A DNA stretch of 32,000 nt. Source: Candidatus Saccharimonadota bacterium. Its GTDB lineage: Bacteria; Patescibacteriota; Gracilibacteria; UBA1369; 2-02-FULL-48-14. Made by a program: the position numbers and the translations under genes. Below the pieces are notes generated by a model. The model ran no database searches. It saw only the letters and a list, made by a program, of their open reading frames with translations, and was not told the origin of the DNA. The DNA lies in assembly GCA_041661045.1 (NCBI GenBank), contig JBAZVE010000001.1:390001-422000 (forward strand), written 5' to 3'. This document shows, piece after piece, positions 1 through 19,043 of the stretch (within the stretch, counting starts at the first letter, position 1; each line of letters begins with the position of its first letter).

Positions 1-81
1 CGGGTTGTATTCAATGTCAGCGCTCCAAATAATTTCAGTCGAACTATATTTCTTACCACGTGACCCTCTAAATTGGGGATT

Positions 82-384
82 TTAGTTTTCTGGCCCTTTA
101 TTCGCTTTAAGTACGGCGTAACTTGCCTCAAAAATTGCTTCAGCTGGGGCTCTAAGTCTGTCTATTTGATTCAAGAAATCTGGTTCAAGAATTTGGAATC
201 CATCTGGCGTAAGATTACCGTTCAACAACATTCCTACTGCAGCACGCTTTGCTTGAATAGGAAATGCATTCCAGTTTGCAGGTAGTTGCGCACCTTCTCC
301 CTTTGCTAGATCAGCTAGTCCTTTTGCGTCTAGATGTTCAACTAGATCGCTTGGCATTAGTGGGCCTGATGGACCTTCATCCAT
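82..384 (-). CDS. hypothetical protein (100 aa)
   Basis: Intact ATG..TAA ORF with no motif I recognise. Lies just left of repeat copy 1. Confidence 0.45.
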   Translation of the reverse strand: MDEGPSGPLMPSDLVEHLDAKGLADLAKGEGAQLPANWNAFPIQAKRAAVGMLLNGNLTPDGFQILEPDFLNQIDRLRAPAEAIFEASYAVLKANKGPEN

Positions 385-460
385 AGTATTGTGGGAAGAT
401 TATTATCTGCTTATTCTACCATCAAACATAGTTTCTTCCAATATCTTTCTTGGTATGCAT

Positions 461-539
461 AAAGGGAAAGCCCCTCTCCTGGCGACAAAACCCGAACACG
501 AACATAAAATAAGTTGAAAGCATTGTGCTTCCATTTTTG
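461..539 (+). repeat. conserved intergenic repeat, copy 1 (full length)
   Basis: A-run/C-rich lead-in (aaagggaaagcccctctcctg), then the 57-nt core GCGACAAAACCCGAACACGAACATAAAATAAGTTGAAAGCATTGTGCTTCCATTTTT at 482-538. The core is 52/57 identical to copy 4. Confidence 0.9.
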
Positions 540-676
540 TTTGAGGCATTTGTTCATTGGCTAGGCGTATTGGTATTCCTTACTACTCTTGGCTTCACCT
601 ACACCCACCCATACGTACAGCTAGGGGTCGATTTGGGATGCCCTGCCCCTGCGATTATAGGCGCACATAACATAAC

Positions 677-705
677 TTGTAGTATCTTTAATGGTTTGAT
701 ATAGT
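677..705 (+). promoter_or_regulatory. sigma70-like promoter candidate for the 732 gene
   Basis: TTGTAG (677-682), 17-nt spacer, TATAGT (700-705), 27 nt upstream of ATG 732. Confidence 0.45.
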
Positions 706-731
706 GCATCCTTAAACTTAAAAATGTTCTT

Positions 732-1469
732 ATGAGACCTGGCGAATCACAAACTTATGTTGACCAACTGACCCAAGGGGAACTTCGTGATTACCCAGGA
801 ATGTTGCGGCGAGTACTCAGCCTTGTGGAGAAACCTCTGTCAACATTATTGGAAGCAAGTGCAGAAGTTAAAGCTGCAAACACGACAGTACAAAGCGCAC
901 TTGATTGCTTAAGTTTAGATGACCGTGCAACATTTGATACAAAGATTGTGCCACCTGAGAAGATGGGGAGATTTTCTGTCCAGTATAGAAACCCGATGAA
1001 AATTTCTGCTAGAGCAGGTGATTCATTGGCTCTGCGAGCTGCTGTCCTTGCTTCCATTGATGAGATTGTTGCAGTCTTTCACCAGAGACGAGACGGAGTC
1101 TTGGCGCATGCTAGGTTTCAAGGAGAAGATCAAAAAGATACCCATGGACACACGGTCATCGCGGCACCGTTTCTTTTGTTGGATGTTGGTGGCCAAAATG
1201 GCTCTTTCCCACTTGAACTCGTACAAGCCTCGACACCCTTACATGTACAAACGCTTCCAGCACAATCCCATTTTGATAGAAGGTTTGCTGAAATGTCCTT
1301 CAGTCTTGATCGTTCACGTAATCCTAGCGCTACTGTACCTAAATCCTTCCTTGAGGGGGTCCGGGGGAGTGACAAACATGCGATGCCTCATATGCGTCGT
1401 ACTGATGGAAACGTTTTTGAACTGGCGCGCAATCTACTTTCTCGACTAGGTGGTGAAGTCATTGAATGA
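732..1469 (+). CDS. hypothetical protein (245 aa)
   Basis: Long ATG ORF with no recognisable motif. Bounded by repeat copies 1 and 2. Confidence 0.6.
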   Translation: MRPGESQTYVDQLTQGELRDYPGMLRRVLSLVEKPLSTLLEASAEVKAANTTVQSALDCLSLDDRATFDTKIVPPEKMGRFSVQYRNPMKISARAGDSLALRAAVLASIDEIVAVFHQRRDGVLAHARFQGEDQKDTHGHTVIAAPFLLLDVGGQNGSFPLELVQASTPLHVQTLPAQSHFDRRFAEMSFSLDRSRNPSATVPKSFLEGVRGSDKHAMPHMRRTDGNVFELARNLLSRLGGEVIE

Positions 1470-1496
1470 GGTTTAGTGTAGCTTTAGCTTATTCGT

Positions 1497-1536
1497 GAAC
1501 ATAAAATAAGTTGAAAGCATTGTGCTTCCATTTTTG
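1497..1536 (+). repeat. conserved intergenic repeat, copy 2 (5'-truncated)
   Basis: 40/40 identical to 500-539 of copy 1 (gaacataaaataagttgaaagcattgtgcttccatttttg). Lacks the GCGACAAAACCCGA part. Lies between convergent genes. Confidence 0.9.
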
Positions 1537-1563
1537 GGTTGTCCAGGGGAGATAAAATGGGTT

Positions 1564-2079
1564 TTATTCCTCTTCTTGCTCAAGTTTTGAGAAGTAATGC
1601 TTCAGTTTTGGTTGAAGGAAGGCATCAATTTGAGCTTCGAATTGGGCGACACACATGGAGAGATGGTTTTTAAGCTTGTTCAGTCGCCATCGCTGGATTG
1701 CGCCTTTCTCTTCAGAGGGAGAGCCGACGAGGCTGCTTATATTTCCCGCTAAACTGAAGCATGTTTTTGCAAGACTTGGGGCATCTTCTCCTGCAAAATA
1801 TGGAGACTGAATTAGTGCTTGCAATGAGGAGTGTGAATGTCGGGCTAGCTCAATATTATTAAATGCTAGTAAACCTTCGATTTCTGACAAAGTAACATTG
1901 CAGATGCTGCTGAGCTCCATCGCCTGTTTGACAGTGGCGTTGAGTTCATCCAAAGATTCGAGCAGAAAACTGCTTTTTATTGCATCCTCTAAGTCCCTCA
2001 CCCTCCCTTGTAGTGTTCCAAAGATTTGGTCTATTTCGGCATGTGCTTCTTCGGCACTTTTCACTGGATCAGGAACCAT
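1564..2079 (-). CDS. hypothetical all-helical protein (171 aa)
   Basis: ATG ORF whose start overlaps the upstream gene's end by 11 nt (2069-2079), suggesting translational coupling. No known motif. Confidence 0.6.
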   Translation of the reverse strand: MVPDPVKSAEEAHAEIDQIFGTLQGRVRDLEDAIKSSFLLESLDELNATVKQAMELSSICNVTLSEIEGLLAFNNIELARHSHSSLQALIQSPYFAGEDAPSLAKTCFSLAGNISSLVGSPSEEKGAIQRWRLNKLKNHLSMCVAQFEAQIDAFLQPKLKHYFSKLEQEEE

Positions 2080-2467
2080 GCCTAATCTGACCCCAAGTTG
2101 TTCTGGAATGGTTCTTTTTTTTCCTCTGTTCAGTTATAACTCTAGCTTCGTAAGCCTGAAGAACTTGTGCAAGAATACCCATAAGCTGGTCTGCAATCAC
2201 CTCCCTTGCAAAGCGTATTTGAGGGGCAAGTTGATCTCTTTCTCCGCTTTTGATTTTTACCGCTAATCGGTGAAGCAGATGTTCAATCAAACGATATTGA
2301 ATTTCTTTGCTTCTCACTTGAGTAGGTTCAATCCCACCTAGTTCATGCATGCTACTCCCAAAGAGAGCTTCTTCCACTCCTTTTGGAAGACTAGCTCCAG
2401 GCTCCACTAAACTCTTGATGATGTCATCAGAAGTAGGTCTTGGTACCATCAATTGAGTTTCAGGCAT
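2069..2467 (-). CDS. hypothetical protein (132 aa)
   Basis: ATG at 2467 preceded by AGGAAG. First gene of a two-gene minus-strand unit. No known motif. Confidence 0.6.
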   Translation of the reverse strand: MPETQLMVPRPTSDDIIKSLVEPGASLPKGVEEALFGSSMHELGGIEPTQVRSKEIQYRLIEHLLHRLAVKIKSGERDQLAPQIRFAREVIADQLMGILAQVLQAYEARVITEQRKKKNHSRTTWGQIRHGS

Positions 2468-2550
2468 ATCTTCCTAGGCTTAATGTTGGAAGTTAATATA
2501 AATTATTTGGTAGAACTGTCAAGTTCTGCCGTATTTCAATTGGCTTGAAC

Positions 2551-2630
2551 AAAAGAAAATCCCTTGCCCCTACGACAAAACCCGATTACAAACATAAAAT
2601 AAGTTGTAAACATTGTGGCTCCATTTGACT
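2551..2630 (+). repeat. conserved intergenic repeat, copy 3 (full length)
   Basis: Lead-in aaaagaaaatcccttgcccct plus core at 2572-2628, 51/57 identical to copy 4. Confidence 0.9.
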
Positions 2631-2675
2631 TCAGGTTGCAATTATGTTTTAATTGTGCCTTTTAAGTATCCTAAA

Positions 2676-4067
2676 ATGAAGCTAAGAGAGGTGATTGCTG
2701 GCATATTTCTCGTAAGTTCGCCTGGACTTGCAGCTTGTACGAATAGTCCACAAATTGAAGCGGCCCCACGAGTGGAAGGTTTGGCACCCGATTTAGAGGC
2801 GCTTGAGCTAGGACAAGAAGTGAAACGCTCTCTGGAAGAAACAGCTCAGGCACTATCAAATCTACATTCGCAATGCAAGGTATCAAAAGATGATGAGGCC
2901 GTATTATGGCTAGGAAATACTAGTTTCACGCCCGTCAAAGGGTACCAAACTGAAACGGAAAAAGGAGATGTTTATGTTTTTCGTTACGATGGGCTAATAC
3001 CAGACGAAGACAAAACAGGTCGTAAAATTCCTCTGCATGAATTTTACATAGTTCAGCCTGAGAAAGGAACGATGCTTATGGTGACTGAGAAAGATGGGGA
3101 GTTGAGCGAACTGAAGGCCCTTCACTACACAGGGAATATGGTGGATGCAGCTGGTAAAATACTGGGACCTTTAGCATTGAGTAAAACGACAAGTGGTATT
3201 TCATTCAATGTAGATTTGTCACAAGAGGTAGATGCACTGACAACTGCTTTTGGTGAACTCCGAGGAGGATGTCCTAGCCGATACATTGTGCCTGGAAATT
3301 CAAACCAAGCTTATCAAAGCAATATCTATCTTATGTTCTCTGAAAACAGAGGTTGGAGCAATCCAGATTTAAGAATACATCAGGACTGGATTGAATCGGG
3401 GATTGCTCGAATTGGGTCGACCTGTGGACAAGCTGCCAACGATACTCGAGAGGCATATCAAGAAGTCACTCGAGATTACTCATTTCGCTATTATCCAGAA
3501 GATTGGGATATAGCACAGGATAGTAGCGGTGCAGTTGATGGCAATATTATCTATGTTAATGGGGGAACTGGAGTATCAGCAGTGATCGTACATGAAATGA
3601 CTCACGGCCTAACGCCTATCCCATATGGCATGGGACTTTACACCCTTTTCAGCGAAGGAGTGGCTGACGTTCTGACTCACATCTCAGGCCTGTCTCTCCC
3701 CTCATATAAAGCATATGTCGATGAAAGCCTGCTCAGTGCAGCTTTGGGCCCTAAACTATATTGTGCACCACTCAATGACCCTACTTTCTTTTATAATAAC
3801 ACCCAAGTAAGTACGCATAATCCCTCTTTGCGCCAATTATCTGATGATTTCGTAGAAGGTTGGGGCATCAATAGGGCAGATAAAGAAAAAGTATGGGCGA
3901 TCTTTAACCCTGAAAGAGGTAGAAATAGACAGTATCAAGATTCTATCACCGTTCGAATCCCAGAACTCAAACGTATTCTTGAACGAAATCACATAGATTG
4001 GGATACATTTTTACTCGCAGTTGATCCCACATCTGGAAGGCTAGCTGCAGAATGGCGGGAGCTCTAG
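2676..4067 (+). CDS. secreted lipoprotein, putative gluzincin-type zinc metalloprotease
   Basis: Start chosen at MKLREVIAGIFLVSSPGLAAC (signal peptide plus lipobox L-A-A-C), because the longer ORF start lies inside repeat copy 3. Has HEXXH (VIVHEMTHGL) followed 17 aa later by SEGVAD, resembling the thermolysin-like third ligand. Confidence 0.7.
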   Translation: MKLREVIAGIFLVSSPGLAACTNSPQIEAAPRVEGLAPDLEALELGQEVKRSLEETAQALSNLHSQCKVSKDDEAVLWLGNTSFTPVKGYQTETEKGDVYVFRYDGLIPDEDKTGRKIPLHEFYIVQPEKGTMLMVTEKDGELSELKALHYTGNMVDAAGKILGPLALSKTTSGISFNVDLSQEVDALTTAFGELRGGCPSRYIVPGNSNQAYQSNIYLMFSENRGWSNPDLRIHQDWIESGIARIGSTCGQAANDTREAYQEVTRDYSFRYYPEDWDIAQDSSGAVDGNIIYVNGGTGVSAVIVHEMTHGLTPIPYGMGLYTLFSEGVADVLTHISGLSLPSYKAYVDESLLSAALGPKLYCAPLNDPTFFYNNTQVSTHNPSLRQLSDDFVEGWGINRADKEKVWAIFNPERGRNRQYQDSITVRIPELKRILERNHIDWDTFLLAVDPTSGRLAAEWREL

Positions 4068-4070
4068 CAT

Positions 4071-4146
4071 AAAAAACCCCTTCCCACTGCGACAAAACCC
4101 GATTACAAACATAAAATAAGTTGGAAACATTGTGCTTCCATTTTTA
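4071..4146 (+). repeat. conserved intergenic repeat, copy 4 (full length)
   Basis: Begins 3 nt after the stop at 4067. Lead-in aaaaaaccccttcccact plus core at 4089-4145. Internal GCGACA-N17-TAAAAT at 4089-4117. Confidence 0.9.
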
Positions 4147-4202
4147 ATGGTACTTTAAAAGTGCGCCGTGTATAGTTGGCTTACATTCCTTATCTCCATG
4201 TT

Positions 4203-5873
4203 ATGAAAAAGAAACACATACCCTTTCTGGTTGTAGGTCTTTTGGTAGTTCTATTTGTCACTGCAGCTTTTTCTGATTTTGATAAACTTAAAGCTGCATT
4301 TTCGGGCGCTTTTACTCCAAGGGACATAGTGGTGTCTCCTAGCGGCTCGGACACGGGAGCGGGAAGCTCTACAGATCCTATGTCTCTGGAAGGCGCATTA
4401 GCCTCAGCGCCTAGTGGAGCTACGCTAGTGCTTTTATCTGGGACTTATCCTGTGGAAGAACCTTTGGCATTGGACCGTGAACTTTCAATGAAAGGGAGAG
4501 GAGGAGCTGTAATTGACTGTTCAGAGATCGATAGTGACCTATGGTGTATGGAGTTTGGGCCTGGTATTGGAGACAGTGTACGCTTTGAAAATTTCACCTT
4601 CACTCATGCGCTAAACGGGGTTCATATCCAAGGTGGATCCCCAGAGTTCGAAGACATGACCTTTCTCCGTGGAACATTAGAAGACTCATCTGGTTCAATG
4701 GATGAGTCCTACTTCCTAGTCAGCGTGGAAGACGGTTCTGCAGATTTTAATATAATAAACAGTAAATTTTCTGTCGCAGGCTCACGGTTTGGAGGCACAG
4801 GCTATGAAGGGGTTGATGGATTACCCTTTGGCTTACACATTACTGACGGCTCCTCTGCTACAGTCACTGGTATGGATTGCCAGGGGTATTACTTTTCATG
4901 CGTGCTCTTTACTGGTGGTGGAAGTAGTGGTGAAGTAAGAAATTCACTATTTGCGGCCGTTGATTCAGGAGTCATGATTGATGAAGGTGCGGGTGGAGTC
5001 GACATTCTAGGCAATGGTTTTATCTACATCTATGGGAATGCGATCTATTTTGGGGAAGGAGTGGGTGAATCATTTATTGCTCAAAATCAATTTGCTTACA
5101 TAGACCATTCCAGTGTGTACTTTAATGATTTTGCTGAAAATGTTGAAGCTGAATTGATGGCAAATTTCTTCAGACCAGGTGGGCCTTTTGAGGGAGATCT
5201 TTCTTACAGCACGGATAGCTTCGTGGGTGAATTGGATATTACGAGTGGATACGACTTGTATGTTGATGAGGTGGAAGACTTGTATGTTCACCATAATTTC
5301 TTTGAAGGGACCGAGGATAGAACTGCGATTCTTATTAGGGGCGGTACTGATCCAATTGATGGGAATCTACTCATAGAGCAGAATTGGTTTGATGACTATG
5401 CAATTGCCATTGCTCTGTCTGCTGAAATTAAAAACCTAATCGTCAACAATGTATTTTTGAATATGACGAGGGCTATCGTTGCTGGTGGAACTATTACATT
5501 TGCCTACAATACACTTGTCGGCGGTGAAATCGGTCTGGATCATTTTAGTGACTATCCAAGTTTGATTGTGGACAATATATTCGTTGGCTTTGATGCTTTT
5601 GCCATTACTAGTGCACTAAGTTTCACTGATAGTGTTCAGATGGGTTTCAATGCTTTTTTTGACAATGGAACGGATATTGATGGAGTCCTCGATTATGATG
5701 ACCTAGGGGGCAATGTCTATGATGATCCTGACTTTGTGGATTCTGATGAAAATGATTTCCATTTAGAAGCTGGTTCACCTCTGATCGATGTAGGCTCTGG
5801 ATTTGTTAGTGTGTCAGGCGACTATGAGGCTGATCCACGCGTAGTGCCGGACATTGGTGCCTTCGAGTACTAA
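4203..5873 (+). CDS. membrane-anchored right-handed beta-helix protein (DUF1565-like N-terminus, choice-of-anchor-Q-like C-terminus)
   Basis: Start at MKKKHIPFLVVGLLVVLFV (TM/signal). N-terminal VVSPSGSD...GSSTDPMSLEGAL...GATLVLLSGTY is typical of pectate-lyase-fold proteins. The middle is repetitive and rich in G/N/D/F. C-terminal motif NDFHLEAGSPLIDVG...DPR...PDIGAFEY. Confidence 0.7.
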   Translation: MKKKHIPFLVVGLLVVLFVTAAFSDFDKLKAAFSGAFTPRDIVVSPSGSDTGAGSSTDPMSLEGALASAPSGATLVLLSGTYPVEEPLALDRELSMKGRGGAVIDCSEIDSDLWCMEFGPGIGDSVRFENFTFTHALNGVHIQGGSPEFEDMTFLRGTLEDSSGSMDESYFLVSVEDGSADFNIINSKFSVAGSRFGGTGYEGVDGLPFGLHITDGSSATVTGMDCQGYYFSCVLFTGGGSSGEVRNSLFAAVDSGVMIDEGAGGVDILGNGFIYIYGNAIYFGEGVGESFIAQNQFAYIDHSSVYFNDFAENVEAELMANFFRPGGPFEGDLSYSTDSFVGELDITSGYDLYVDEVEDLYVHHNFFEGTEDRTAILIRGGTDPIDGNLLIEQNWFDDYAIAIALSAEIKNLIVNNVFLNMTRAIVAGGTITFAYNTLVGGEIGLDHFSDYPSLIVDNIFVGFDAFAITSALSFTDSVQMGFNAFFDNGTDIDGVLDYDDLGGNVYDDPDFVDSDENDFHLEAGSPLIDVGSGFVSVSGDYEADPRVVPDIGAFEY

Positions 5874-7768
5874 TGAGGGGCGCATCCTTTCTGATTGTTG
5901 TTTGGGCATTGTTTGTCCCCTTGGTGATTTCCCCTTGGGGATTTGACACCTTTGAAACTCCGAAAAATGTTCTTTTCAAAAGTGCATTGGCGCTTGTTTT
6001 TATGCTGTGGGGAGGTGCTCATATCTTTGGGAAAACATCTATTGGGCCAAGACTGACCCACAAAGAATGGTTGATGCTTGCTGGATTTCTTGTGATTCTT
6101 GGCTTATCAATGCTGACCAGCGTTCATCCTGAGCTTAGTTTTTGGGGCAGTCTTGGCAGGCAAGGTGGGGTTATTAATTATTTAGCTTACGCTGCGATCT
6201 TTGTTGTAGGTATTCAACTATTTGGAGAATCTTCTACCCGCGCAAACAAAAATCGACAACTTTTTCTAAAATGCGTTCTTATCGCAGGAGTTTTAATGTC
6301 AATAATCGCATTACTGCAGAGAGCAGGAATGTACTTTTTTGGACAAAATCTGATAGATGGTTTCGCTGGCCGCTCATTTTCCACGATAGGAAACCCTACC
6401 ATGATGGGCGCTTATCTGATTTTCCCCATTGGCGCTGCACTAGCTCTTCTACAAAACTCTAAACTCAAAGAGCGTGACTGGTGGCCTGCAATACTATGGG
6501 GTGCCATTGCCTTGATGGTGGCGGCTCTTTTTGCTGCAGAAAACCGTGCGAGCATTCTTGCTCTAGGTGTAATGGCTATGCTGCACGGTCTGTTTCTTTT
6601 ACGATTACGAAATCGTACAAAGTTCTTGCTATTTTCCCTGGGAATAATCGCACTGATGAGTGGTCTATACTTATTCAAGGATGAAGTCAGATCGCTGGCC
6701 TCACGCTGGAGCATATGGACCAGTTGCATTGAATGGCTCAGTCAAAATCCATTTGTAGGCAGTGGAGCTGAAAGTTTTGGCCTAATCTTTGAATCCATAG
6801 TTCGGCCCGACTTCTTTGAAACAGAGACCTACTTGAGTCTAGCGGACCGCCCCCATAATGAATTTTTAGAATGGTGGATACACTTTGGCTTACTGGGTGC
6901 TCTTTTTTATGTGTGGCTGGTTGTTAGCTTGGTGAAGGCATGGCTCACTCAGACACCTCAACAGAAGCACCTAAAGCCTGAAGCCTACTGGATTGGACTC
7001 GCTCTAATCGGGTTTTTGGTAAGCAATCAGTTTAGTTTTTCAATCGCAATACATGGACTGTACTTTGCACTTTTCTTAGCTTTTCTGATTTCTTACTGCC
7101 CTCGTAAAGGTGTTGCACTTAAACCTGTCTTTACAAAAGTAGTAGCGAGTTTGGCTTTTGTGGCGGGCCTAGGGCTTTTGATTATACAAGGAAGTATCCT
7201 GATAAAGGATAGTCAAATGTCCTCTGCTGTCTCAGCTTTTAAGAATGGTCACGCTGAAGAACTTGCAATGCATCTTGAAGCAATGAGTCGCTGGCAACCT
7301 CACTATCCAGAGTACTACCTGGCAGGAACTGATCTGGCGATTGCCTCAGGAGACCTGGCTCTAGCTCAGCAGCTTAATGGCGTGCACCGTCGCATCACTC
7401 ATGATGGAGCACAAGCTCTTCTAGTGGCAGCTGAAATCTCCTTTTACATGGATGACCATGAGGCAACTCTCGCAATCTATGAATCTCTGGAAGCTGATGG
7501 TCGTAATCTACCTCTTCTCTATCAACATTGGGCGCGTGTGTTAGTGATTTTGGAAGATTTTGAGGCTGCAGCACAAACCTTTGACAAACTTTTTGTCCTT
7601 TTACCTGATTACTGGAAAGCAAATCCAGACCAAACTGAACTGATGAGCTTTGAACAGAGAATTTTCTGGAAACAACATCCCTGGTTTGTAGATGTACTTG
7701 AAGATGCTAAGAAAGCATATGAAGAAACGGGTAGAACTGAGAGTTTGCAAAGCAAATGGATACCCTGA
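5873..7768 (+). CDS. O-antigen ligase/polymerase-family (Wzy_C-like) polytopic membrane protein with C-terminal TPR-like domain
   Basis: More than 10 hydrophobic segments. Loop motif DRPHNEFLEWWIHFGLLGALFYVW is typical of the O-antigen ligase family. Soluble helical-repeat tail. Start overlaps the upstream stop (TAATG). Confidence 0.75.
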   Translation: MRGASFLIVVWALFVPLVISPWGFDTFETPKNVLFKSALALVFMLWGGAHIFGKTSIGPRLTHKEWLMLAGFLVILGLSMLTSVHPELSFWGSLGRQGGVINYLAYAAIFVVGIQLFGESSTRANKNRQLFLKCVLIAGVLMSIIALLQRAGMYFFGQNLIDGFAGRSFSTIGNPTMMGAYLIFPIGAALALLQNSKLKERDWWPAILWGAIALMVAALFAAENRASILALGVMAMLHGLFLLRLRNRTKFLLFSLGIIALMSGLYLFKDEVRSLASRWSIWTSCIEWLSQNPFVGSGAESFGLIFESIVRPDFFETETYLSLADRPHNEFLEWWIHFGLLGALFYVWLVVSLVKAWLTQTPQQKHLKPEAYWIGLALIGFLVSNQFSFSIAIHGLYFALFLAFLISYCPRKGVALKPVFTKVVASLAFVAGLGLLIIQGSILIKDSQMSSAVSAFKNGHAEELAMHLEAMSRWQPHYPEYYLAGTDLAIASGDLALAQQLNGVHRRITHDGAQALLVAAEISFYMDDHEATLAIYESLEADGRNLPLLYQHWARVLVILEDFEAAAQTFDKLFVLLPDYWKANPDQTELMSFEQRIFWKQHPWFVDVLEDAKKAYEETGRTESLQSKWIP

Positions 7769-9295: not shown

Positions 9296-10189
9296 ATGCT
9301 CGATTCTGCCGCAGATCGTCTTCCAGTCCAAGCTTCTCTTACTCTTAGTCCCGCTCTTCCTAACTTAAGATCCCTCAACCAATATCTTGGTGGTATGGTG
9401 TTTTTCCGTGAGTCAGAGGATGCCCCATTCACCCGTGGTCGTTTAACTCTGGAGCCCAGAAAGACTGGTGAGCTGGCGGGCGTAGCGGAAGGAGTGCTTG
9501 GTTCCCTGCAGGGTGCGGGTGTCATGCAATCTGCTCCAAAATCTAGAGTGGGAACTCCTCCACACATGTCTTATTCCATCACACCAATGGTGGGAGATGA
9601 CCCCTCCGTTCTAATCTCAGATTTGGGTGATTTTGGCAAACTGGAAATATGTGTTTATGACAATTCTCAGGAGCGCGATGAGAAGATGGTGAAGGAGATC
9701 GAAGGGCTAGCTTCCAGATTGGGTCTGAATCCTATCGGCTTTACGACGAAAGATGGGCGCTACTGGGTTGAACTACCTGGTGCTCCAGCCGGGGCACGGT
9801 TTTATGTGGAGTTCCATTCCCATTTTGTTCGCATTGGGTATGGTGGTGAGGACGCTAGATTTAATACATTGTCGGACCGCTTGATTAACCAGTGGGGCCC
9901 TAATAATGTCGAGCTCTCAGCGGGAGATGTGGGTGTTTCTAGTGGTCTTCGGCTATCAGAGTTGGAGTATGGACGGAATTTTACCATTGCTCAGGATGTG
10001 AGCGACCCATTGTCTCCCTCGAGTGTGCATTTACGCGCTGGAGATGTCGTCTGCTTACGAATGCTTGATGCTGATGACAAAGCTTACGATAGCTCTACCC
10101 CTCTGACTGAGTTGCTTGTAAATGACACTACAAGATTTGAATTGTCTGCCGAAGAGCTTTCGCGGATGATCGTGAAAACTCGGTTGTGA
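9296..10189 (+). CDS. hypothetical protein (297 aa)
   Basis: Long ATG ORF downstream of a near-consensus promoter. No recognisable motif. Confidence 0.6.
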   Translation: MLDSAADRLPVQASLTLSPALPNLRSLNQYLGGMVFFRESEDAPFTRGRLTLEPRKTGELAGVAEGVLGSLQGAGVMQSAPKSRVGTPPHMSYSITPMVGDDPSVLISDLGDFGKLEICVYDNSQERDEKMVKEIEGLASRLGLNPIGFTTKDGRYWVELPGAPAGARFYVEFHSHFVRIGYGGEDARFNTLSDRLINQWGPNNVELSAGDVGVSSGLRLSELEYGRNFTIAQDVSDPLSPSSVHLRAGDVVCLRMLDADDKAYDSSTPLTELLVNDTTRFELSAEELSRMIVKTRL

Positions 10190-10212
10190 TGGGACAGGCT
10201 GCGTTTAAGAAA

Positions 10213-11191
10213 CTAGCGCAAGTTTGAAAAAGCGTTTATTTCTGTTTCCACAGTCCCGTCCGGGTAAAACATGGCGACGGAACGAAGGGCATGGGGGTCG
10301 AAGGTGTGGTCTGCTGAAGAGCAAAACTTGTGGTCGCAGCCAAGCAGGGTGACTGGCCCTAAATTAGTCTGAATAGTCCTTAACCCTGCTGAGTTTCGAT
10401 CGTGGCCAAAGACGAAGGTGCGCACGCCGTTTTCGACGACCTCGTCCCAGATGCAATTTGTTTCCAGAGGGGTGGCCGCTCTCCTATTGTCAGCGCATGT
10501 TATCGCTTGCACCCCTGCGAGCCATCCTATGCGGTGATACTCCTCTGCAAAGGGCTTCTCCCCTTGTAAGACTTTACTCATGGCATCTCGGTGCTCCTCA
10601 TTTAGATGTGGATAGTTTATGGCATTCAATGTGCTTGGTGTCGGCGGCGTGTGTTGAAAAACCACCCCATCGATTCTATGGAACAGCTTCATGTCCCCAT
10701 ACAATTCACAGAGCGCCTGCCCTTCTTCACTCTCCCGTAGCCGTTTTAAGTAGTCCGTGTCCGCTTTTCGTGCGGCAAAAAACTGGTCTATGTCCAGGGT
10801 GCTTGGAGCGAGCTCCAAGAATCGTCCCAGTTCAAAAATCCCTCTTATGCTTTGTTTGTGGATTTGCTTCAGATTTCCCCCAAGACCGTTGGTTATAAAA
10901 TTGACCCCCTCGTGGTCGTGATTCCCCAAAATCGTCGTCAGCGTTCCCCCGTTCTCCTGAATTTGTCTCCTGAGATCCCGAACGAACATGGCGATGTCGA
11001 AGTCATCTTCGTAACGATCTGCGGTCAAATCCCCCCAAGAGGATGAGATCAGTGTCTTTTAAGGTCCACCTGTGGAGAGGGTCCACTGCTCTGAGCGCCC
11101 TGAGATCGGACTTTAGGGCGGGGAGGAAACCGTGGACATCTGCCACCACAGCGGTGGGGGTGGAAATTCCGTGGCCAATTTGAGTCCTCAT
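10213..11191 (-). pseudogene. calcineurin-like metallophosphoesterase interrupted by a +1 frameshift in a G6 (plus-strand C6) run
   Basis: The 62-aa ORF carries VVADVHG and ...DLILLG. The 271-aa ORF carries ILGNHDHEG, VVFQHTPP and FVFGHDRN. Removing one G at 11031-11036 gives LILLGDLTADRYEDD, restoring the canonical GDxxDR motif. Confidence 0.75.
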
Positions 11192-11265
11192 GTTTGTGCT
11201 CTTTGCCGTTAAGGTCTAAACTGTCTTTGTTTTTCCGTACTTTAGATCTAAAATATTTTTTGTCA

Positions 11266-12123
11266 ATGGAGTTGAGGGAAGATCACAATTTGGCCCCGTA
11301 TTGCACCTTTCAAATTGGAGGGCCGGCGGATTTTTTTGTGGAGGCGCGGGGGAGCGAGGAGGTTTTGGAGGCGCTGAACTGGGCGGAGGAGCGGGATCTG
11401 CCGGTTTTTGTGTTTGGCGGGGGGAGCAATTTGCTTTTTGATGATGGGGGTTTCCGCGGGCTGGTGATTCGGATGAGGTTGGCGGGAGTGGAAGTACGGG
11501 GGGAGGAGGTTTGGGCGGAGGCGGGAGTGATGATGGCGAAGGTGGTTTTGGCTGCGGCGGAGGCGGGGCTCACGGGTCTGGAAGCGTGGAATGGTTTACC
11601 GGGAACGGTGGGGGGCGCGGTGTTTGGGAATGCGGGATGCTTTGGGGTGGAGGCTAAAGATGTTCTGGAGAGTGCAGAGGTTTGGATGCCGGGCGAGGGG
11701 GTGAAAACGGTTGGCGTGGAATTTTTTGAGTATGATTATCGATGGTCGCGGCTCAAGAAAGAAGGCGGGGTGGTTTTGAGTGCAAGCTTTAAATTGCAGA
11801 GGGGAGAGCGAGGGGAAATTTTGGAGAAAATGAAGGAAATTGCGCGAAGTCGGATTTCAAAACAGCCGCCGGGGAGCAGCACGGGATCGTTCTTTAAGAA
11901 TCCTCCGGGGGACCATGCGGGGAGACTCATTGAGGCCGCGGGCCTTAAGGGAAAGTGGCTTGGGAAAGCGCGAATTTCGGATCAGCATGCGAATTTTTTC
12001 CTGAATGCGGGGGGAGCGACAGCGGCGGATATTTTAAATTTGGCCGCTTTGGTGGAAAAGACCGTTTTTGAAAAATTTGGAATACGGCTGGAGCGGGAAG
12101 TGGTGTTTGTGCCTTCGGAATGA
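11266..12123 (+). CDS. murB: UDP-N-acetylenolpyruvoylglucosamine reductase
   Basis: MELREDHNLAPYCTFQIGGPADFFVEARGSEEVLEAL...PVFVFGGGSNLLFDDGGFRGLVIRM and the C-terminal SSTGSFFKNPPG...KISDQHANFFLN are MurB hallmarks. ATG 11266 preferred over the longer upstream start. Confidence 0.9.
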   Translation: MELREDHNLAPYCTFQIGGPADFFVEARGSEEVLEALNWAEERDLPVFVFGGGSNLLFDDGGFRGLVIRMRLAGVEVRGEEVWAEAGVMMAKVVLAAAEAGLTGLEAWNGLPGTVGGAVFGNAGCFGVEAKDVLESAEVWMPGEGVKTVGVEFFEYDYRWSRLKKEGGVVLSASFKLQRGERGEILEKMKEIARSRISKQPPGSSTGSFFKNPPGDHAGRLIEAAGLKGKWLGKARISDQHANFFLNAGGATAADILNLAALVEKTVFEKFGIRLEREVVFVPSE

Positions 12124-12188
12124 AGGTGAAACTTGCACGCGGGCTAAAAAACTGCTTAAATGGCGAAGAAATGCACTAACCCCACGCT

Positions 12189-12626
12189 ATGCAAGTCAAA
12201 GCACTCATTCAATCCCCCATTGTCCGCGAAGTTCTTATTTTTGCCGGACTCCTGGGCGCTGCTCTTTTGGTTTCTCAACTCCTGCCCGGCATGAGTTTTG
12301 CAAACGGTTTTATTGATGACTCCGACAACCTCGACATCGTTGGTGATGCCACCAATAATGAAGGAGATCTTAAGGAGCTCATCAAAGATATTCTCAATTA
12401 CTTCCTTGGATTCTTGGGCTTTGTGGCTACCGTGATGGTGATTTACGGCGGTGTGCTCTACATTACAGATGGAGGAAGCGACGAAAATGTTGGTAAGGCT
12501 AAAAAGATTTTGATGTATGCCGCCATTGGTATCATCCTCATCTTGATCTCCTTCGCACTGGTCAACACCATCTTGGGTGCCGGACTTGGTGGAGGCGCAA
12601 GCACAAGTACCACAACCGTGAACTGA
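12189..12626 (+). CDS. T4SS-pilin-like (TrbC/VirB2-like) small secreted membrane protein
   Basis: Signal peptide followed by two TM helices separated by a short charged loop (VMVIYGGVLYITDGGSDENVGKAKKILMYAAIGIILILISFALVNTILG). This architecture is typical of the CPR-abundant pilin family. Confidence 0.6.
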   Translation: MQVKALIQSPIVREVLIFAGLLGAALLVSQLLPGMSFANGFIDDSDNLDIVGDATNNEGDLKELIKDILNYFLGFLGFVATVMVIYGGVLYITDGGSDENVGKAKKILMYAAIGIILILISFALVNTILGAGLGGGASTSTTTVN

Positions 12627-12637
12627 GTTTTAAACAA

Positions 12638-13147
12638 TTAAGTAAGAGCCGGGACTTGAATTTTCCCGGCTTTTTCTTTTTCCTCCGGTTCCACCGTGAG
12701 CACAATGGCTTTTTCGGTGACCGCCGAGATGTCGCTGTAGTCAAATGTCCGCTTGTCCCATTCCATCCACAGAAATTTTTTAGAAACCTCAATGGAGAGG
12801 AGAAAGCTGGTGTTCGTGTCCAAGCAAAAATCGCGCACGCGGCCCAAGCTCTGCCCATTTTTTGCCAGCACGCGCTTGTTGTTCAAAAAGGTCCGGCGCA
12901 AACCAAATTCTTGAATGCGTAAAATTTCCAGGGGAGTCGTGAACGCTTCGGGCCCACTCACTCGTATGTAGTCTTTATTCCACTGCTCGATGTCCACCGG
13001 CACTACCATTTTGGAATAACCAAGCAAGAGCCCAATGATTTGCCCCGTTTCCGGATGCATAAAAACGCCCGTCACAAAGCCAAAAGGCCTATCTTCTTCC
13101 GAAGAAATCACGGCAAGCCCGTCGAGTTGGGACCAGTGGAGCTTCAT
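12638..13147 (-). CDS. PRC-barrel domain protein (two repeats)
   Basis: LDGLAVISSEEDRPFGFVTGVFMHPETGQIIGLLLG and NKRVLAKNGQSLGRVRDFCLDTNTSFLLSIEVS resemble PRC-barrel segments. Confidence 0.55.
   Translation of the reverse strand: MKLHWSQLDGLAVISSEEDRPFGFVTGVFMHPETGQIIGLLLGYSKMVVPVDIEQWNKDYIRVSGPEAFTTPLEILRIQEFGLRRTFLNNKRVLAKNGQSLGRVRDFCLDTNTSFLLSIEVSKKFLWMEWDKRTFDYSDISAVTEKAIVLTVEPEEKEKAGKIQVPALT
12647..12680 (+). terminator. rho-independent terminator of the pilin-like gene
   Basis: 8-bp stem AGCCGGGA/TCCCGGCT (12647-12654 / 12664-12671) followed by TTTTCTTTTT. Embedded in the 3' end of the convergent PRC-barrel ORF. Confidence 0.6.
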
Positions 13148-13197
13148 CGAGGAACATTATACTTTCGGACCCTTGAAAAACAAAGGGCGAAACACCC

Positions 13198-13226
13198 TTG
13201 TCGCTGAGGCTGTTTCATGGTACAAT
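13198..13226 (+). promoter_or_regulatory. extended -10 promoter candidate
   Basis: TTGTCG (13198-13203), 17-nt spacer, TGgTACAAT (-10 at 13221-13226), 15 nt upstream of ATG 13242. Confidence 0.5.
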
Positions 13227-13241
13227 TATTGGATTTAATTT

Positions 13242-13547
13242 ATGCCAATGGGACTCAGCGCTAACGATGTCATCGCTCTCGCACAAGAAACCAAAGCCCT
13301 TTCCAAAGAGCAGTTGGAGCGCATTTTAGAGGTGGCTCCCACCATGAGCGCCGCGGATTTGGAAGAACTCAAAAAAATGATCCTGGCCGTGCAAGCTGCC
13401 GAAATTGAAGGTATGAAAAAAGAACTCGAACTTCGTCAAAAAGTCGCCGCCGCCTACTCCGAGTGGCAGGCCGACAAAGCCCGCGCCACCCTCCAAACCC
13501 AAGAGGGTGCCGTCGCTCGCGAAGACCAAGCTCAATTTGAAATATGA
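13242..13547 (+). CDS. hypothetical coiled-coil protein (101 aa)
   Basis: ATG ORF, helical and rich in E/K/A. Its stop overlaps the next start (ATGA at 13544-13547). Confidence 0.55.
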   Translation: MPMGLSANDVIALAQETKALSKEQLERILEVAPTMSAADLEELKKMILAVQAAEIEGMKKELELRQKVAAAYSEWQADKARATLQTQEGAVAREDQAQFEI

Positions 13548-15241
13548 GTTACGCCGGTGCTGGTGGATTTGTCTCTCCTGAGGCTTATCATGATTTCGTT
13601 CCCATGCAACGACTCGCTTCGGACTTGAAAGAACTTTCAGGCAAAAATTACCCTCCTGAATTTCTTAAAAAGTTTACCGAAGAGAATCCTGAGGTTTCTG
13701 CTGCGCTACAAAAGATTGTAGCGTCACAAAAAGAGAACCGAACCGCTGACCCTGCTTTGGCCGAGGCCTTAAAGGTTTTGGATGGAGATTTGGATTTTGT
13801 CCAACTCCAAAAATACAATGCCATTCTTAAGGATGTCGGTTTTACTGAAGGAGGCTTGGTTGAGGTTTTTAACGGTAGGGTTCTTATCACCATACCTTGT
13901 GATGTTGGTGGACCCTTTAAAATCTCGTCCATGGGTTCCCATGGCTGGTTATTGGATGGAGTGTCTTACACTGCAGATCGTGATAATTTGGCTTTATTAA
14001 CACAGGCGCTTATTGATGCAAAGTCACTCAAATTCACTTTAGAGAAGGCAAGGGAAAAGCGTTTGCCACAAACCGAGGTTTTATTTGAGAAGGCCATGTT
14101 GCCCAAAGCGCGCCTGTGGGCTTCTGTCGTTGTAAATCCAATCTTTGCTTTGGAACGCGCGGTCCAGAGGGGGTTTTCACTACGCCCTGATGCTCCAGAG
14201 CGTTTACGCGCTATGGGACAAAAGCGTTGGATCAATAGCTTTTCGGGCGGAGCCGGTTCTTCCTCAGAGGTCTCGTCTGACGAACCTCAAGCGACAGAGG
14301 GAGTGGCTCGAACAGGAGCGTCAAGTGTGGAACGGAAAGAAGTCCGACAAGAGGAAGCAGCCTTTGCGGCGAAAATGCAGGGGGAGGGGTGGAAAAAGTA
14401 TGCGACTTTAACGGATAATGCTGAAGAAGGTGGGAGTATTGTTGTGAAACTTCCTACCGACAAAAATGAGCCTAACTACTCTGACTATACAAACAGCCGT
14501 ATTCACGACTTTTTTGGTGGCAAATCACCGGTCAAGGTGCTCTCGGCTTCAGAGATGGAGACCTACGATATTACTGTGAATAGTAAACCTGTTGAATGGG
14601 GCCCTGATACAGACTACCCAGATGGAACTTGGCTTGATGCAAGCACCAAAACTCGGGTTTGGGCAGAGAATGGGACCAAGATTGAATGGAAGAAAAAGGG
14701 TCTTGTAAGTGCGGAAGCTCCGGCGGCTGCAGCAGGAGGGGCAGTGGCTGCAAATGCTCCTACAAAGGTTGAGTTTTTGGATGATGGAGGTGCAGATGCC
14801 TCTGCAGAAAAAATTCGGGAACGGATGGAAAAGTCCTTTTCTTATTTGACGCGGACAGATGGAGTTTTGACACAGAAAGCTACGGCCTTGAAAGCAGTTA
14901 AAGAGAAAATCGGGAAAAAATCTCTTTTTAGGACTGCAAGTAAGGCTGAAGATCTTGATTTGGAGGCACTTACCTTGGAGAGAGACATTCGACTGCTTAA
15001 AGATGACCGGGCTAGGGTCATTGCCTTTGTTAGAGAACAAACAAACACTCCTCTCTACGCCACTTTGGCCGGGAATGTGGCCTTGGCGGATTTGAGCAGA
15101 TGGGGACTGGAAAATCCACACGAAGTAACCGAAGTCATGATCGCCTCAACCACTCCTGAGGCTCCCACTAAAGTAGAGATTGGCACCGGGCCAGCCGTGC
15201 TTGCTTCGAATGATACGGCATCGGCTTCTACTGATGCCTGA
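13544..15241 (+). CDS. hypothetical protein (565 aa)
   Basis: Long ORF translationally coupled to the 101-aa gene. No recognisable motif. Confidence 0.6.
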   Translation: MSYAGAGGFVSPEAYHDFVPMQRLASDLKELSGKNYPPEFLKKFTEENPEVSAALQKIVASQKENRTADPALAEALKVLDGDLDFVQLQKYNAILKDVGFTEGGLVEVFNGRVLITIPCDVGGPFKISSMGSHGWLLDGVSYTADRDNLALLTQALIDAKSLKFTLEKAREKRLPQTEVLFEKAMLPKARLWASVVVNPIFALERAVQRGFSLRPDAPERLRAMGQKRWINSFSGGAGSSSEVSSDEPQATEGVARTGASSVERKEVRQEEAAFAAKMQGEGWKKYATLTDNAEEGGSIVVKLPTDKNEPNYSDYTNSRIHDFFGGKSPVKVLSASEMETYDITVNSKPVEWGPDTDYPDGTWLDASTKTRVWAENGTKIEWKKKGLVSAEAPAAAAGGAVAANAPTKVEFLDDGGADASAEKIRERMEKSFSYLTRTDGVLTQKATALKAVKEKIGKKSLFRTASKAEDLDLEALTLERDIRLLKDDRARVIAFVREQTNTPLYATLAGNVALADLSRWGLENPHEVTEVMIASTTPEAPTKVEIGTGPAVLASNDTASASTDA

Positions 15242-15256
15242 AGCTTTGCTCGTTAA

Positions 15257-15278
15257 CTGTGCGCACGCACAGATTTTG
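15257..15278 (+). terminator. rho-independent terminator candidate
   Basis: Stem CTGTGC/GCACAG with loop GCAC, then ATTTT. A second small hairpin GGCTT-AAGA-AAGCC followed by a T-rich tract sits at about 15290-15315. Confidence 0.5.
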
Positions 15279-15363
15279 CTTCGATTTGTGGCTTAAGAAA
15301 GCCGTTTAATTTTTGGGAATGGCTCAATGGGCGCTGTTTGTGCTTGTAAGTTTCTCGGCGAGA

Positions 15364-15392
15364 TTGACCCGGGCGGGAGTTTTGCTTATACT
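15364..15392 (+). promoter_or_regulatory. promoter candidate for tRNA-Pro
   Basis: TTGACC (15364-15369), 17-nt spacer, TATACT (15387-15392), 27 nt upstream of the tRNA. Confidence 0.55.
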
Positions 15393-15418
15393 CCGCTTTG
15401 CTCTTAGGAGCTTAGCGT

Positions 15419-15495
15419 CGGGGTATAGCAAAGTTGGCTATTGCGCTCGGTTTGGGACCGAGAGGCCGCAGGTTCGAGTCCTGCTACCCCGACCA
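15419..15495 (+). tRNA. tRNA-Pro (anticodon UGG), CCA encoded
   Basis: Cloverleaf read by eye: acceptor CGGGGTA/TACCCCG, D stem GCAA/TTGC, anticodon stem CTCGG/CCGAG with loop TTTGGGA, T arm GCAGG-TTCGAGT-CCTGC, discriminator A plus CCA. 77 nt. Confidence 0.93.
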
Positions 15496-17087
15496 TTTAG
15501 GACTTTTGCATGTTCTTCAAACTCCTTGAATGGAGAATTTAGGCTGTACGAAGCCACTTTCTTTTCTTTCACGGTGAAGTTCGAGAAGAGTTTTTTGATT
15601 AAGTAGTCTTTCTTTTCTAAAACTTTCTCATTTCGCAACCGTAAGCCAAAATCTTTGAAAAGTTCTACAAATTGATCGTAACTTAAAACCTCGGCGTTTT
15701 GCTTTTTCTTTTTCTCTTGGAGAGTTGCGAGCTGGGACTCTAACCCCTCCTGTTGCGTTAAGAGCTTGGCTATTTCCGATTGGTAAAATTCTCTCACCAA
15801 CTTGTCTTTTACTTCTTCCGCCATATTCATTCTGCTTTGAATGCGCCCGCTCAATTGTTTGAGACTTTGGCGTGTTGACTGCTCTTGGGAAGTCAACTCC
15901 TCAACTGTTTTCCTATTCACCCTATGCATTTCTTTTTGATAGTGCTGATAAATTTTTGCCGAGGTGAAATCATGCTGATCAAGAAATGTATCTACAAAAT
16001 CTGTGATGATATGTGCGCGCACGGATTTGTTATGAAACGAACATTTAGGAGTTGTGCATCGGTAGAAAAAATACCGTTTGTCAGCTTTGACCTTGTGGGT
16101 TATATTCGGCACCATCTTTTTTTCACAATGACCGCAGTAAACAAGGCCTCTTAGAAAGTCAGCATGAACCGACCCTTCTTTGAGGTATCGCCCTCTTAAA
16201 CGGAAGCTACGCTCCACCTTTTGCATCTCATTTAACCGTATGAACTCTTCGGGTGTAATCATCGGGCAAAACCCACTTGCTTCTACAAGGTTAATGACCC
16301 TATCCCCGTAGCGGAGTATCCCCGCATAAATCGGGTCTTTTATAAACTCGGAGACTCTTTTCTTATTCATCGTATAAAGCTCATCCCCTCGTAATGTCGA
16401 TTTTTTGTAATGATTCTGATTTAGGTATTCGGCTATCTCATCAAGGGACTTTGCATCTAAACGCATTTTTAATGCATTTTGGATTAGGTCAAAATTGGTT
16501 CCGTTGGGATGCAGCTCTTGATTTTCATCTTTACGGTATCCATGCTTATTTCTCCCCAAATACTTTCCTTCGTTGGAACTTCTGTTAACACCTCGCAGTA
16601 CGCTCTGACTCAACGCCTCTGAATACTGTTTAGCAATTACGAATGCAATACCCAGCATAACCTTGCCAGAGACGCTATTCTCAAAGTTAAATGCTACAAA
16701 TTTCAAATCTCTGATCACCCCCTTGTCTAGAAGATCAATTACCTCTCCCGCATCTTTCATGTTTCTGGAGAGCCGATCAGGATGCCAAGCTAAAATTGCA
16801 TCGTATTTCCCAGCTTTAATGTCTGCAATCATCTGATTGAACTTTGGCCGTGATTCTGAATTCTTGGCCGAAGCCGCTTCTTGAATTTCTTCTACTACGT
16901 TAAGACCCAGTTTTCTTTGCAAGATACGGGCTTCATCCACTTGATCACCAATTGAACGCACCTGCTCACCATCTTCTTCTCTGGACTTGCGGGCATACAA
17001 TACATAGCGTGGAGGTTTTTCCTCTACCCCTTCTGATTCTGGAGTCACAAAACTTTTTAAGAACCGTTCAAAATCTTTTAATTCCAT
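15438..17087 (-). CDS. large serine recombinase (integrase)
   Basis: N-terminal resolvase domain (YVLYARKSREEDGEQVRSIGDQ...HPDRLSRN). Central recombinase domain. Zinc ribbon CGHC...YRCTTPKC. C-terminal coiled coil. The last 19 codons are antisense to tRNA-Pro. Confidence 0.9.
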   Translation of the reverse strand: MELKDFERFLKSFVTPESEGVEEKPPRYVLYARKSREEDGEQVRSIGDQVDEARILQRKLGLNVVEEIQEAASAKNSESRPKFNQMIADIKAGKYDAILAWHPDRLSRNMKDAGEVIDLLDKGVIRDLKFVAFNFENSVSGKVMLGIAFVIAKQYSEALSQSVLRGVNRSSNEGKYLGRNKHGYRKDENQELHPNGTNFDLIQNALKMRLDAKSLDEIAEYLNQNHYKKSTLRGDELYTMNKKRVSEFIKDPIYAGILRYGDRVINLVEASGFCPMITPEEFIRLNEMQKVERSFRLRGRYLKEGSVHADFLRGLVYCGHCEKKMVPNITHKVKADKRYFFYRCTTPKCSFHNKSVRAHIITDFVDTFLDQHDFTSAKIYQHYQKEMHRVNRKTVEELTSQEQSTRQSLKQLSGRIQSRMNMAEEVKDKLVREFYQSEIAKLLTQQEGLESQLATLQEKKKKQNAEVLSYDQFVELFKDFGLRLRNEKVLEKKDYLIKKLFSNFTVKEKKVASYSLNSPFKEFEEHAKVLNGRGSRTRTCGLSVPNRAQ

Positions 17088-17125
17088 GCCTTTATATTAT
17101 TCCACTGCCTCGCATACGGAAATGT

Positions 17126-17566: not shown

Positions 17567-17616
17567 AACAGTGTCGGTAAAATCACTGATATTTTACGCT
17601 TCTGAACTGGGAAAGT

Positions 17617-18144: not shown

Positions 18145-18181
18145 TTTGGGTTATCCGAAAAAGGGATTTAGCATTCTTTCC

Positions 18182-18397: not shown

Positions 18398-18405
18398 AAA
18401 TTCTC

Positions 18406-19038: not shown

Positions 19039-19043
19039 AAACA

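Follow-up and report, generated by a model that had tools for sequence, protein, structure and literature searches.

Small foreign insertions at the end of a tRNA gene are a familiar way of building a gene-insertion hotspot. The genomes of bacteria of the Candidate Phyla Radiation (CPR) are tiny, gene exchange is thought to be limited in these bacteria, and their mobile elements have been charted only sparsely. Tandem islands at tRNA genes, together with cis-mobilizable elements (CIMEs) arising by site-specific accretion, have been described for the ICESt1/ICESt3 family of Streptococcus thermophilus (reviewed in PMC5704250). Here, we analyse a family of four repeats at the left end of a 32,000-nucleotide stretch of contig JBAZVE010000001.1 (assembly GCA_041661045.1, positions 390,001 to 422,000; hereafter 'the window'). 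These repeats are probably the attachment (att) junctions of small foreign segments, which we call islets, inserted at the 3′ end of a tRNA-Thr gene in a CPR host of the Peregrinibacteria type. The evidence comes from the structure of the copies, their conservation at a single locus, their linkage to and orientation relative to tRNA-Thr, the duplication of the tRNA end and precise insertion polymorphisms.

The closest known situation is the tandem accretion of islands and integrase-less CIMEs at tRNA genes. As in those arrays, insertion appears to occur at the 3′ end of a tRNA gene that stays intact, the units are stacked in one orientation and bounded by direct repeats containing the tRNA end, and many of them have no integrase of their own and would need one in trans. 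The present locus differs in that its units are very small (1–1.5 kb, with one or two genes), the tRNA copy is short (9–19 nt), the repeat carries a one-sided arm of 45–95 nt that is nearly invariant across genera, and the hosts are CPR bacteria. Two other kinds of array are functional analogues, each failing the defining features that were tested. Chromosomal integron arrays, with their attC sites (the Vibrio cholerae repeats, VCR), likewise have one constant site of insertion, co-oriented repeats that close the small cassettes distally, a cargo of ORFans and toxin–antitoxin genes, and cassettes devoid of recombinase. Here, however, there is neither a folded attC nor an intI next to the array, insertion targets a tRNA 3′ end instead of attI, and the cassettes lie in either orientation, apparently with their own promoters. 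The integrative mobile elements exploiting Xer recombination (IMEX) at dif, such as CTX and TLC in Vibrio cholerae, are also integrase-less elements lying between co-oriented copies of one host site, one arm of which is much better conserved, and the candidate recombinases are again Xer-like; yet the target here is a tRNA end and not the dif site of the terminus, with no 28-bp dif architecture and no skew switch.

Between tRNA-Thr and murB there seems to lie a conserved hotspot of insertion, in which toxin–antitoxin pairs, secreted proteins and lineage-specific ORFans are stacked as mini-islets. We may wonder whether it is a CPR platform for cassette capture comparable to an integron, with tRNA-Thr as the docking site, one-sided and unstructured sites of about 45 nt conserved in sequence, a resident Xer-like recombinase acting in trans, and integrase-less cassettes of a single gene circulating between Peregrinibacteria genera; we regard this broader proposal as doubtful. 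If the islets are indeed mobilised in trans, the locus would be a gene-capture system resembling integrons but built on another kind of site. Spanning about 45 nt, the invariant arm provides a search handle for such islets in metagenomes, and could also help to delimit regions that vary between strains and to find the recombinase and the site on which it acts. Limited literature searches returned no description of the element, nor of such arrays in CPR hosts; the only mention in a paper describing five complete Peribacteria genomes is of 'one direct repeat region' encountered in assembly.

Repeat copies in the window

The window contains three full copies of approximately 95 nt and one partial copy of 40 nt, all on the + strand and within the first 4.2 kb:

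445..540, + strand: copy 1, full, with an A/C-rich left arm (445–500) and the invariant arm motif ATAAAATAAGTTGAAAGCA (504–522)
525–538, + strand: right end of copy 1, with the tRNA-end-like GTGCTTCCA (525–533) and then a T-run (534–538)
1497..1536, + strand: copy 2, 5′-truncated, core only, with GTGCTTCCA (1522–1530) and a T-run
2534..2628, + strand: copy 3, full, with the terminal GTGGCTCCA (2615–2623) and then TTT
4055..4147, + strand: copy 4, full, last of the array, with GTGCTTCCA (4132–4140) and a T-run

A previous reading of the same DNA, made from the sequence only, had noticed four co-oriented copies, and these are real. A repeat search delineates two families, one of 87 nt (450–536, 2540–2626 and 4057–4143; identity 72–77%) and one of 40 nt (500–539, 1497–1536, 2590–2629 and 4107–4146), and the 27-nt core pattern AACATAAAATAAGTTGNAANCATTGTG is matched four times in the 32 kb, always on the + strand, for an expectation of 0.00 (100 shuffles). 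The four copies are grouped within 3.7 kb, the remaining 28 kb has no match to the core pattern, and a profile search with its filters off found no further significant copy in the first 12 kb; a degenerate fifth copy at 641–680 was rejected (E 0.86 in the profile search). The sequence-only reading had given the repeat a core of 57 nt, but the homologous unit is longer: it reaches approximately 35–40 nt further left (445–540, 2534–2628 and 4055–4147) and thus measures about 95 nt, fading on its left side and ending sharply on its right side at ..TCCATTT. The identity of 51–52/57 announced for these 57 nt holds for copies 1/4 (52/57) and 3/4 (51/57), but not for copies 1/3 (47/57), while the 40/40 identity of the truncated copy 2 to copy 1 was found again on recount. 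The gene of a 245-aa ORFan is enclosed by copies 1 and 2 as a perfect direct repeat of 40 nt, which suggests a recent event. The terminal GTGGCTCCA of copy 3 reproduces exactly the 9 nt with which tRNA-Thr(UGU) ends in related genomes, copies 1, 2 and 4 having instead the variant GTGCTTCCA (GCTTCCA). Finally, the right flank of copy 4, TTTTTAATGG, is common to the last copy seen in another genome (L005; see below).

Conservation of the element in related genomes

An exact-pattern scan of one genome per species detected seven loci in six metagenome-assembled genomes (MAGs) labelled Peribacteria, Peregrinibacteria, Gracilibacteria or Patescibacteria, and a metagenome scan yielded ten more loci. 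These loci (L001–L017 etc.) are related genome or metagenome stretches, and the copy counts given below apply to the stretches examined. After removal of redundancy, about 11 further Peregrinibacteria/Peribacteria-type genomes carry the element, so that a purely local duplication limited to four copies, which the sequence-only reading had envisaged, does not account for it. No core match was found in viral contigs (0 matches), and a phage origin of the element was rejected on this basis.

The wider search with the core, which had been proposed beforehand, places the element at one locus in each related genome stretch, with one to three copies in the same orientation and unrelated accessory genes between them. 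More diverged copies were recovered with a profile derived from the known ones, which brings L007 to three copies (1.0–1.7 kb apart) and L004 to two; L002 and L005 are contiguous and contain two copies 1530 nt apart, and a contig of 849 kb has a single match, though only 1.7 kb of it was read. The invariant core spans approximately 45 nt across genomes, and the 18-mer ATAAAATAAGTTGAAAAC is identical in nearly all copies (L001, L002, L004–L008, L010, L011, L014, L015 and L017), whereas the adjacent murB DNA is only 65–71% identical between the same loci. Judged by these alignments, the core is conserved far beyond its surroundings, and an arm that is nearly invariant across genera argues either for ongoing selection on recognition by a protein or for a recent spread. 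Some copies are partial and resemble half-sites: copy 2 of the window retains the core and the right part, and L011b and L015b retain the left arm and part of the core.

These last two 3′-truncated copies (L011 2179–2247, − strand; L015 2320–2369, + strand) are fused to the promoter/operator of a conserved Phd-like/RelE-like toxin–antitoxin pair, the TTGAA of the element being the −35 of the toxin–antitoxin promoter. The same cassette follows a full copy in L010, with its own promoter.

A block of genes encoding MurB, a T4SS-pilin-like protein, a PRC-barrel protein and a 101-aa protein is conserved in the window (11266–13547) and in all of the related loci. Its distance to the element is 1–7 kb in every genome, whether it is located on one side of tRNA-Thr or on the other, and the stretch from tRNA-Thr to murB is therefore a variable hotspot. 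It should also be noted that the Logan short-read contigs L018–L021 (source sample SRR18595301) break exactly inside copies of the element; MAGs are therefore likely to contain such loci in fragmented or mis-joined form.

Association with the 3′ end of tRNA-Thr

The all-against-all DNA comparison of the loci brought out a second shared segment, of approximately 76 nt, which is tRNA-Thr(UGU). This gene lies 0.5–5.7 kb to the left of the first copy, and in the same orientation, in L001, L004, L006, L007, L008, L010, L014 and L015. The tRNA ends in ..(A/G)GTGGCTCCA, usually followed by a T-run, and the element ends in ..TTGTGGCTCCA followed by a T-run. Moreover, the bases after CCA co-vary between tRNA and element within each genome:

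L004, copy b: tRNA end and trailer GTGGCTCCATTATGGCTT; element end and flank GTGGCTaCATTATGGCTT
L001: CCAG in the tRNA and CCAG in the element; element end GTGGCTCCAG
L007, L010 and L014: tRNA/element identity over 13–14 nt, GTGGCTCCATTTT(T)
L008: tRNA/element identity over 12 nt

Within one and the same genome, the match of GTGGCTCCA plus trailer extends over 10–19 nt in L001, L004, L007, L008, L010 and L014.

In three independent comparisons, the DNA beyond the element carries on as a tRNA-Thr trailer. Two comparisons between genomes (L008 with L024, and L007a with L014) show precise insertions behind the tRNA. The tRNA is identical in L008 and L024, and the L024 trailer, TTTCGACATTGGTT, recurs in L008 directly after the element: the right flank of the L008 element, TTTCGACGTTGGTT, is the trailer of the L024 tRNA-Thr, and L008 therefore carries a 5.76-kb insertion that separates CCA from the trailer and ends in the element. 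At this junction, 5.76 kb downstream of the L008 tRNA, 23 of 24 nt match across GTGGCTCCA and the trailer. In the second comparison, the right flank of L007a is homologous to the trailer of the L014 tRNA. Among the roles that the sequence-only reading had listed, that of a recombination or cassette boundary is the one borne out, by the copy of the tRNA-Thr 3′ end, by the position downstream of tRNA-Thr and by the location at the distal edge of precise insertions.

Further indications come from individual loci. In L010, an inverted copy of the arm motif (17/18) begins 6 nt after the tRNA, so that the sequences beside the tRNA and at the element resemble two halves of a single palindromic attP-like site, ATAAAATAAGTTGAAAACA - TTGTGGCTCCATTTTT - TGTTTTGAACTTATTTTAT, around a 1.2-kb islet whose cargo is a GNAT-like gene and a toxin–antitoxin pair; the inverted-arm arrangement is also present, imperfectly, in L015. 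L013, a metagenome contig of 1665 nt, is 100% identical to the genome (L002 6925–8000 and L005 1–506) across one islet, and runs from a copy across a 1.5-kb islet to the following copy, beyond which come 83 nt from the beginning of that islet. At its junction, the left arm of one copy is fused to the flank found on the right of the copy before it, an arrangement that may represent a circle, a tandem duplicate or an assembler loop.

Proposed mechanism

Each repeat would be a distal attachment junction, either of attR type or, inside the array, a hybrid attP-like site. The segments would enter by site-specific recombination at the 3′ end of tRNA-Thr(UGU), the gene for which is expected just to the left of the window. 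From left to right, the site would consist of an islet-borne arm (A/C-rich over approximately 50 nt, then the invariant ATAAAATAAGTTSAAAACA), a duplicate of the 9 terminal nt of the tRNA (GTGGCTCCA or the GCTTCCA variant) and the T-rich trailer of the tRNA. Successive insertions at the restored tRNA would push the older islets to the right and generate a co-oriented array, in which each islet (1–1.5 kb) terminates in a single copy irrespective of gene orientation. If two co-oriented copies recombined, the DNA between them would leave as a circle bearing one copy, which could re-insert. We infer that the recombinase would act in trans on the integrase-less islets, and the position of the crossover and any present activity of the sites are inferred in the same way.

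Several observations weigh against this mechanism. An exact tRNA end of at least 10 nt is present in five of the eight tRNA-bearing loci, and the GCTTCCA variant of copies 1, 2 and 4 has only GTG..TCCA and the T-run in common with the tRNA. The conserved arm is one-sided, to the left of the presumed crossover, and a matching inverted arm is clear only in L010. The predicted tRNA-Thr gene falls outside the window, which starts 445 nt to the left of copy 1. The two copies in L013 have 38 identical nt in common, and its junction could therefore come from misassembly. No recombinase gene lies between or next to the copies in the window, nor in the islets of L001, L006, L007, L010, L014 and L015. 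Finally, L024 has at its tRNA-Thr an 8.8-kb island (9838–18685) with a classical 46-nt repeat of the tRNA 3′ half and without the element, so that the tRNA-adjacent integrase family described below may or may not act on the element. This L024 island, which encodes two tyrosine recombinases and a DUF5659 protein, is a different type of island at the same tRNA.

Candidate recombinases

An Xer-like tyrosine recombinase of about 298 aa, found beside tRNA-Thr in some genomes, would be the leading candidate for the catalyst. In L004, a 298-aa protein of this kind (5342–6238) is encoded directly after tRNA-Thr; it combines a Phage_integrase domain with a SAM-like N-terminal one and lacks an arm-binding domain. 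A second tyrosine recombinase, in the island of L002 (937–1806), is 29% identical to it. The L004-type recombinase has 1709 homologues at E<1e-30, mostly in Peregrinibacteria and often named XerD, and the family adjoins tRNA-Thr in L024 and in the P0004 context, and tRNA-Lys in L022 and L023. Most islets bounded by the element are devoid of a recombinase, and would therefore have been moved in trans, as CIMEs and IMEX are, or be fossils. In L022 (9700–9950) and L023, the integrase family is found directly downstream of tRNA-Lys(CUU), with a degenerate partial copy of tRNA-Lys just upstream. A large serine recombinase was considered as a shared catalyst and rejected: those encoded at 15441–17087 in the window and at 2433–4262 in L010 show no significant similarity in a direct BLASTP comparison and occupy different positions.

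Alternative explanations

The sequence-only reading had pointed out a promoter-like GCGACA-N17-TAAAAT in the core, and the three full copies of the window do match the sigma-70 consensus (9/12, with a spacer of 17 nt). The element could then be a portable promoter with a leader, firing rightward, in which the invariant 25 nt that follow serve as a shared 5′ leader or operator and co-regulate the downstream genes. TAAAAT is indeed invariant in every full copy, 12 of 21 copies are followed by a co-directional gene 38–192 nt further on, and L011b and L015b retain the left arm and the −10 directly upstream of a toxin–antitoxin operon. However, the −35 varies (GCGGAA, TCTCAA, CCTGAA) and the positions after the −10 are invariant, a pattern that does not fit a promoter. 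The next gene is convergent in 9 of the 21 copies (22 nt away in L001, overlapping by 2 nt in L007b and L014), a minus-strand gene has its 3′ end towards the truncated copy 2, promoter-like matches are not enriched in the region (11, for an expected 7.8 ± 3.4), and the tRNA-end identity and the trailer matches are left unexplained. Of the promoter or operator role suggested earlier, the invariant −10 therefore survives, while the −35 and the convergent neighbours speak against it, and we consider this explanation unlikely; an outward promoter inside the att arm is nonetheless compatible with att junctions at tRNA-Thr. Read on the minus strand, the core becomes UGGAAGCA-CAA-UGYUUUCA followed by a U-rich tract, and could be taken for an intrinsic terminator or another 3′ element: terminator-like matches are found on this strand at 533–515, 1530–1512 and 4140–4122, and to the right of nine copies, at a distance of −2 to 194 nt, lies the end of a minus-strand gene. 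Yet the stem needs two G–U pairs and loses two pairs in the GGCTCC variant, which includes copy 3, with no compensatory changes across copies; minus-strand folding is no better than for shuffled sequences (z −0.6 to +0.4), many copies have no minus-strand gene upstream, and the link to the tRNA is again unexplained, all of which makes a terminator highly improbable.

The involvement of Xer-like proteins raises the question of a dif-like dimer resolution site with stacked Xer-exploiting elements (IMEX). A single locus per examined genome stretch, co-oriented copies flanking integrase-less segments, and Xer-like candidate recombinases with very common homologues in Peregrinibacteria are what such a site would give. 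The core nevertheless has neither the 11-6-11 structure nor inverted arms, and no consistent GC-skew switch is observed at the element in the window or in the loci with long flanks, where the skew follows gene orientation; nor does a dif site give any reason for the tRNA-Thr 3′ end and its trailer, or for the position downstream of that gene, and this explanation is very unlikely. The least probable of the explanations that we weighed is that the repeats are integron-type attC sites or belong to a family of miniature inverted-repeat transposable elements (MITEs) or repetitive extragenic palindromes (REPs). Co-oriented repeats bounding small cassettes, with a toxin–antitoxin and ORFan cargo, do recall chromosomal integrons, but neither strand has a dyad or hairpin or the paired R″/L″ and L′/R′ boxes, and conservation bears on sequence rather than structure. 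Furthermore, there is no adjacent intI-type gene, the arrays of the window and of most loci have no integrase beside them, and the cassette genes lie in either orientation with promoter-like sequences of their own. As for MITEs or REPs, the former of which had been suggested by the sequence-only reading, the copies occupy a single locus per genome stretch instead of being dispersed, and have no terminal inverted repeats of their own.

Other candidates were tried and rejected. A replication origin or terminus was set aside, since no consistent GC-skew switch was found. A Tn7-like end was considered because the arm motif resembles TnsB-binding sites; the motif points the wrong way relative to the end and is present as a single copy per end. 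No transposase gene is present in any locus. The Rfam comparison proposed beforehand gave no match at the gathering score and, at E<5, a single chance-level match to sbrA (E 1.1), which sits just to the left of copy 3 and barely overlaps it. Folding of the four copies on both strands (z −0.6 to +1.2) is no better than for shuffled sequences and reveals no dyad. The element is therefore neither a structured RNA nor an integron attC, and the tiny small RNA (sRNA) unit suggested earlier is not supported. The hairpin AAGCA-TTG-TGCTT previously described on the plus strand exists in copies 1 and 2 only; it is not a conserved feature, because most members of the family read AAACA...TGCTT or ...GGCTC. 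A small open reading frame (ORF) on the minus strand (MEAQCFQLILC...) was rejected on account of a stop in L007c and of invariance at the nucleotide level without a wobble pattern, as read by eye from the alignments.

In the window (2624–2660), in L006 (1276–1310) and in L007 (156–200), the sequence right after CCA(T)n begins with TTTGAC(T/G), the T-run and the following GAC thus creating a −35-like TTGAC for a promoter directed into the next islet. An example is TTGACT-N17-TTTAAT ahead of the gene for the 463-aa protein described below.

Islets and their cargo

The four copies delimit the following islets:

1..444: islet A, its left part cut by the window; gene for a 100-aa protein at 82–384 (−); right end at copy 1
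541..1496: islet B; gene for the 245-aa ORFan at 732–1469 (+); closed by the truncated copy 2
1537..2533: islet C; overlapping genes at 1564–2079 (171 aa) and 2069–2467 (132 aa), both −; closed by copy 3
2629..4054: islet D; gene for a 463-aa predicted lipoprotein at 2676–4067 (+); closed by copy 4

None of the proteins encoded between the copies (100, 245, 171, 132 and 463 aa) belongs to a Pfam or NCBIfam family, and the 245-aa protein has no homologue among 5.8 billion proteins, so that the movement of its cassette cannot be traced through homologues. The genes had been called orphans, which agrees with these searches, and the 245-aa protein is an ORFan in the strict sense. The 100-aa flank protein is not on record. 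The 463-aa protein has a lipobox (LAAC) and a metalloprotease-like HEMTH motif. Related islets carry Phd-like/RelE-like pairs and GNAT-like, MNT-like, TIR-like, prim-pol primase and SpoVG-like genes, these names being assigned by eye from translations, without family-library scoring. Such a cargo (toxin–antitoxin, GNAT-like, ORFans, predicted secreted protein) is typical of islands.

Over 21 copies, the right neighbour is co-directional in 12 cases and convergent in 9, and the left neighbour is divergent in 13 and co-directional in 8. As the sequence-only reading had stated for the window, the copies thus separate units whatever the gene orientation; genes flank them in all four orientation combinations, so that the element goes with no particular gene. 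Genes whose 3′ end faces the element stop 0–30 nt from it or overlap it by 2 nt (L007b and L014). Islet C also contains, inside the gene for the 171-aa protein, a 28-nt inverted repeat (1581–1608 and 1751–1778) that is 79% complementary, with its arms 142 nt apart.

A separate island at tRNA-Pro

A separate island (15419–23800) is located in the window at tRNA-Pro(UGG) (15419–15495). The ORF of its large serine recombinase, encoded on the − strand, overlaps the 3′ end of tRNA-Pro, and no flanking direct repeat of the island was found. The next genes encode a small terminase subunit (17129–17566, −), an 8xMP membrane protein and an SNase-like nuclease, and the GC content falls to 0.41–0.44 until approximately 23 kb.

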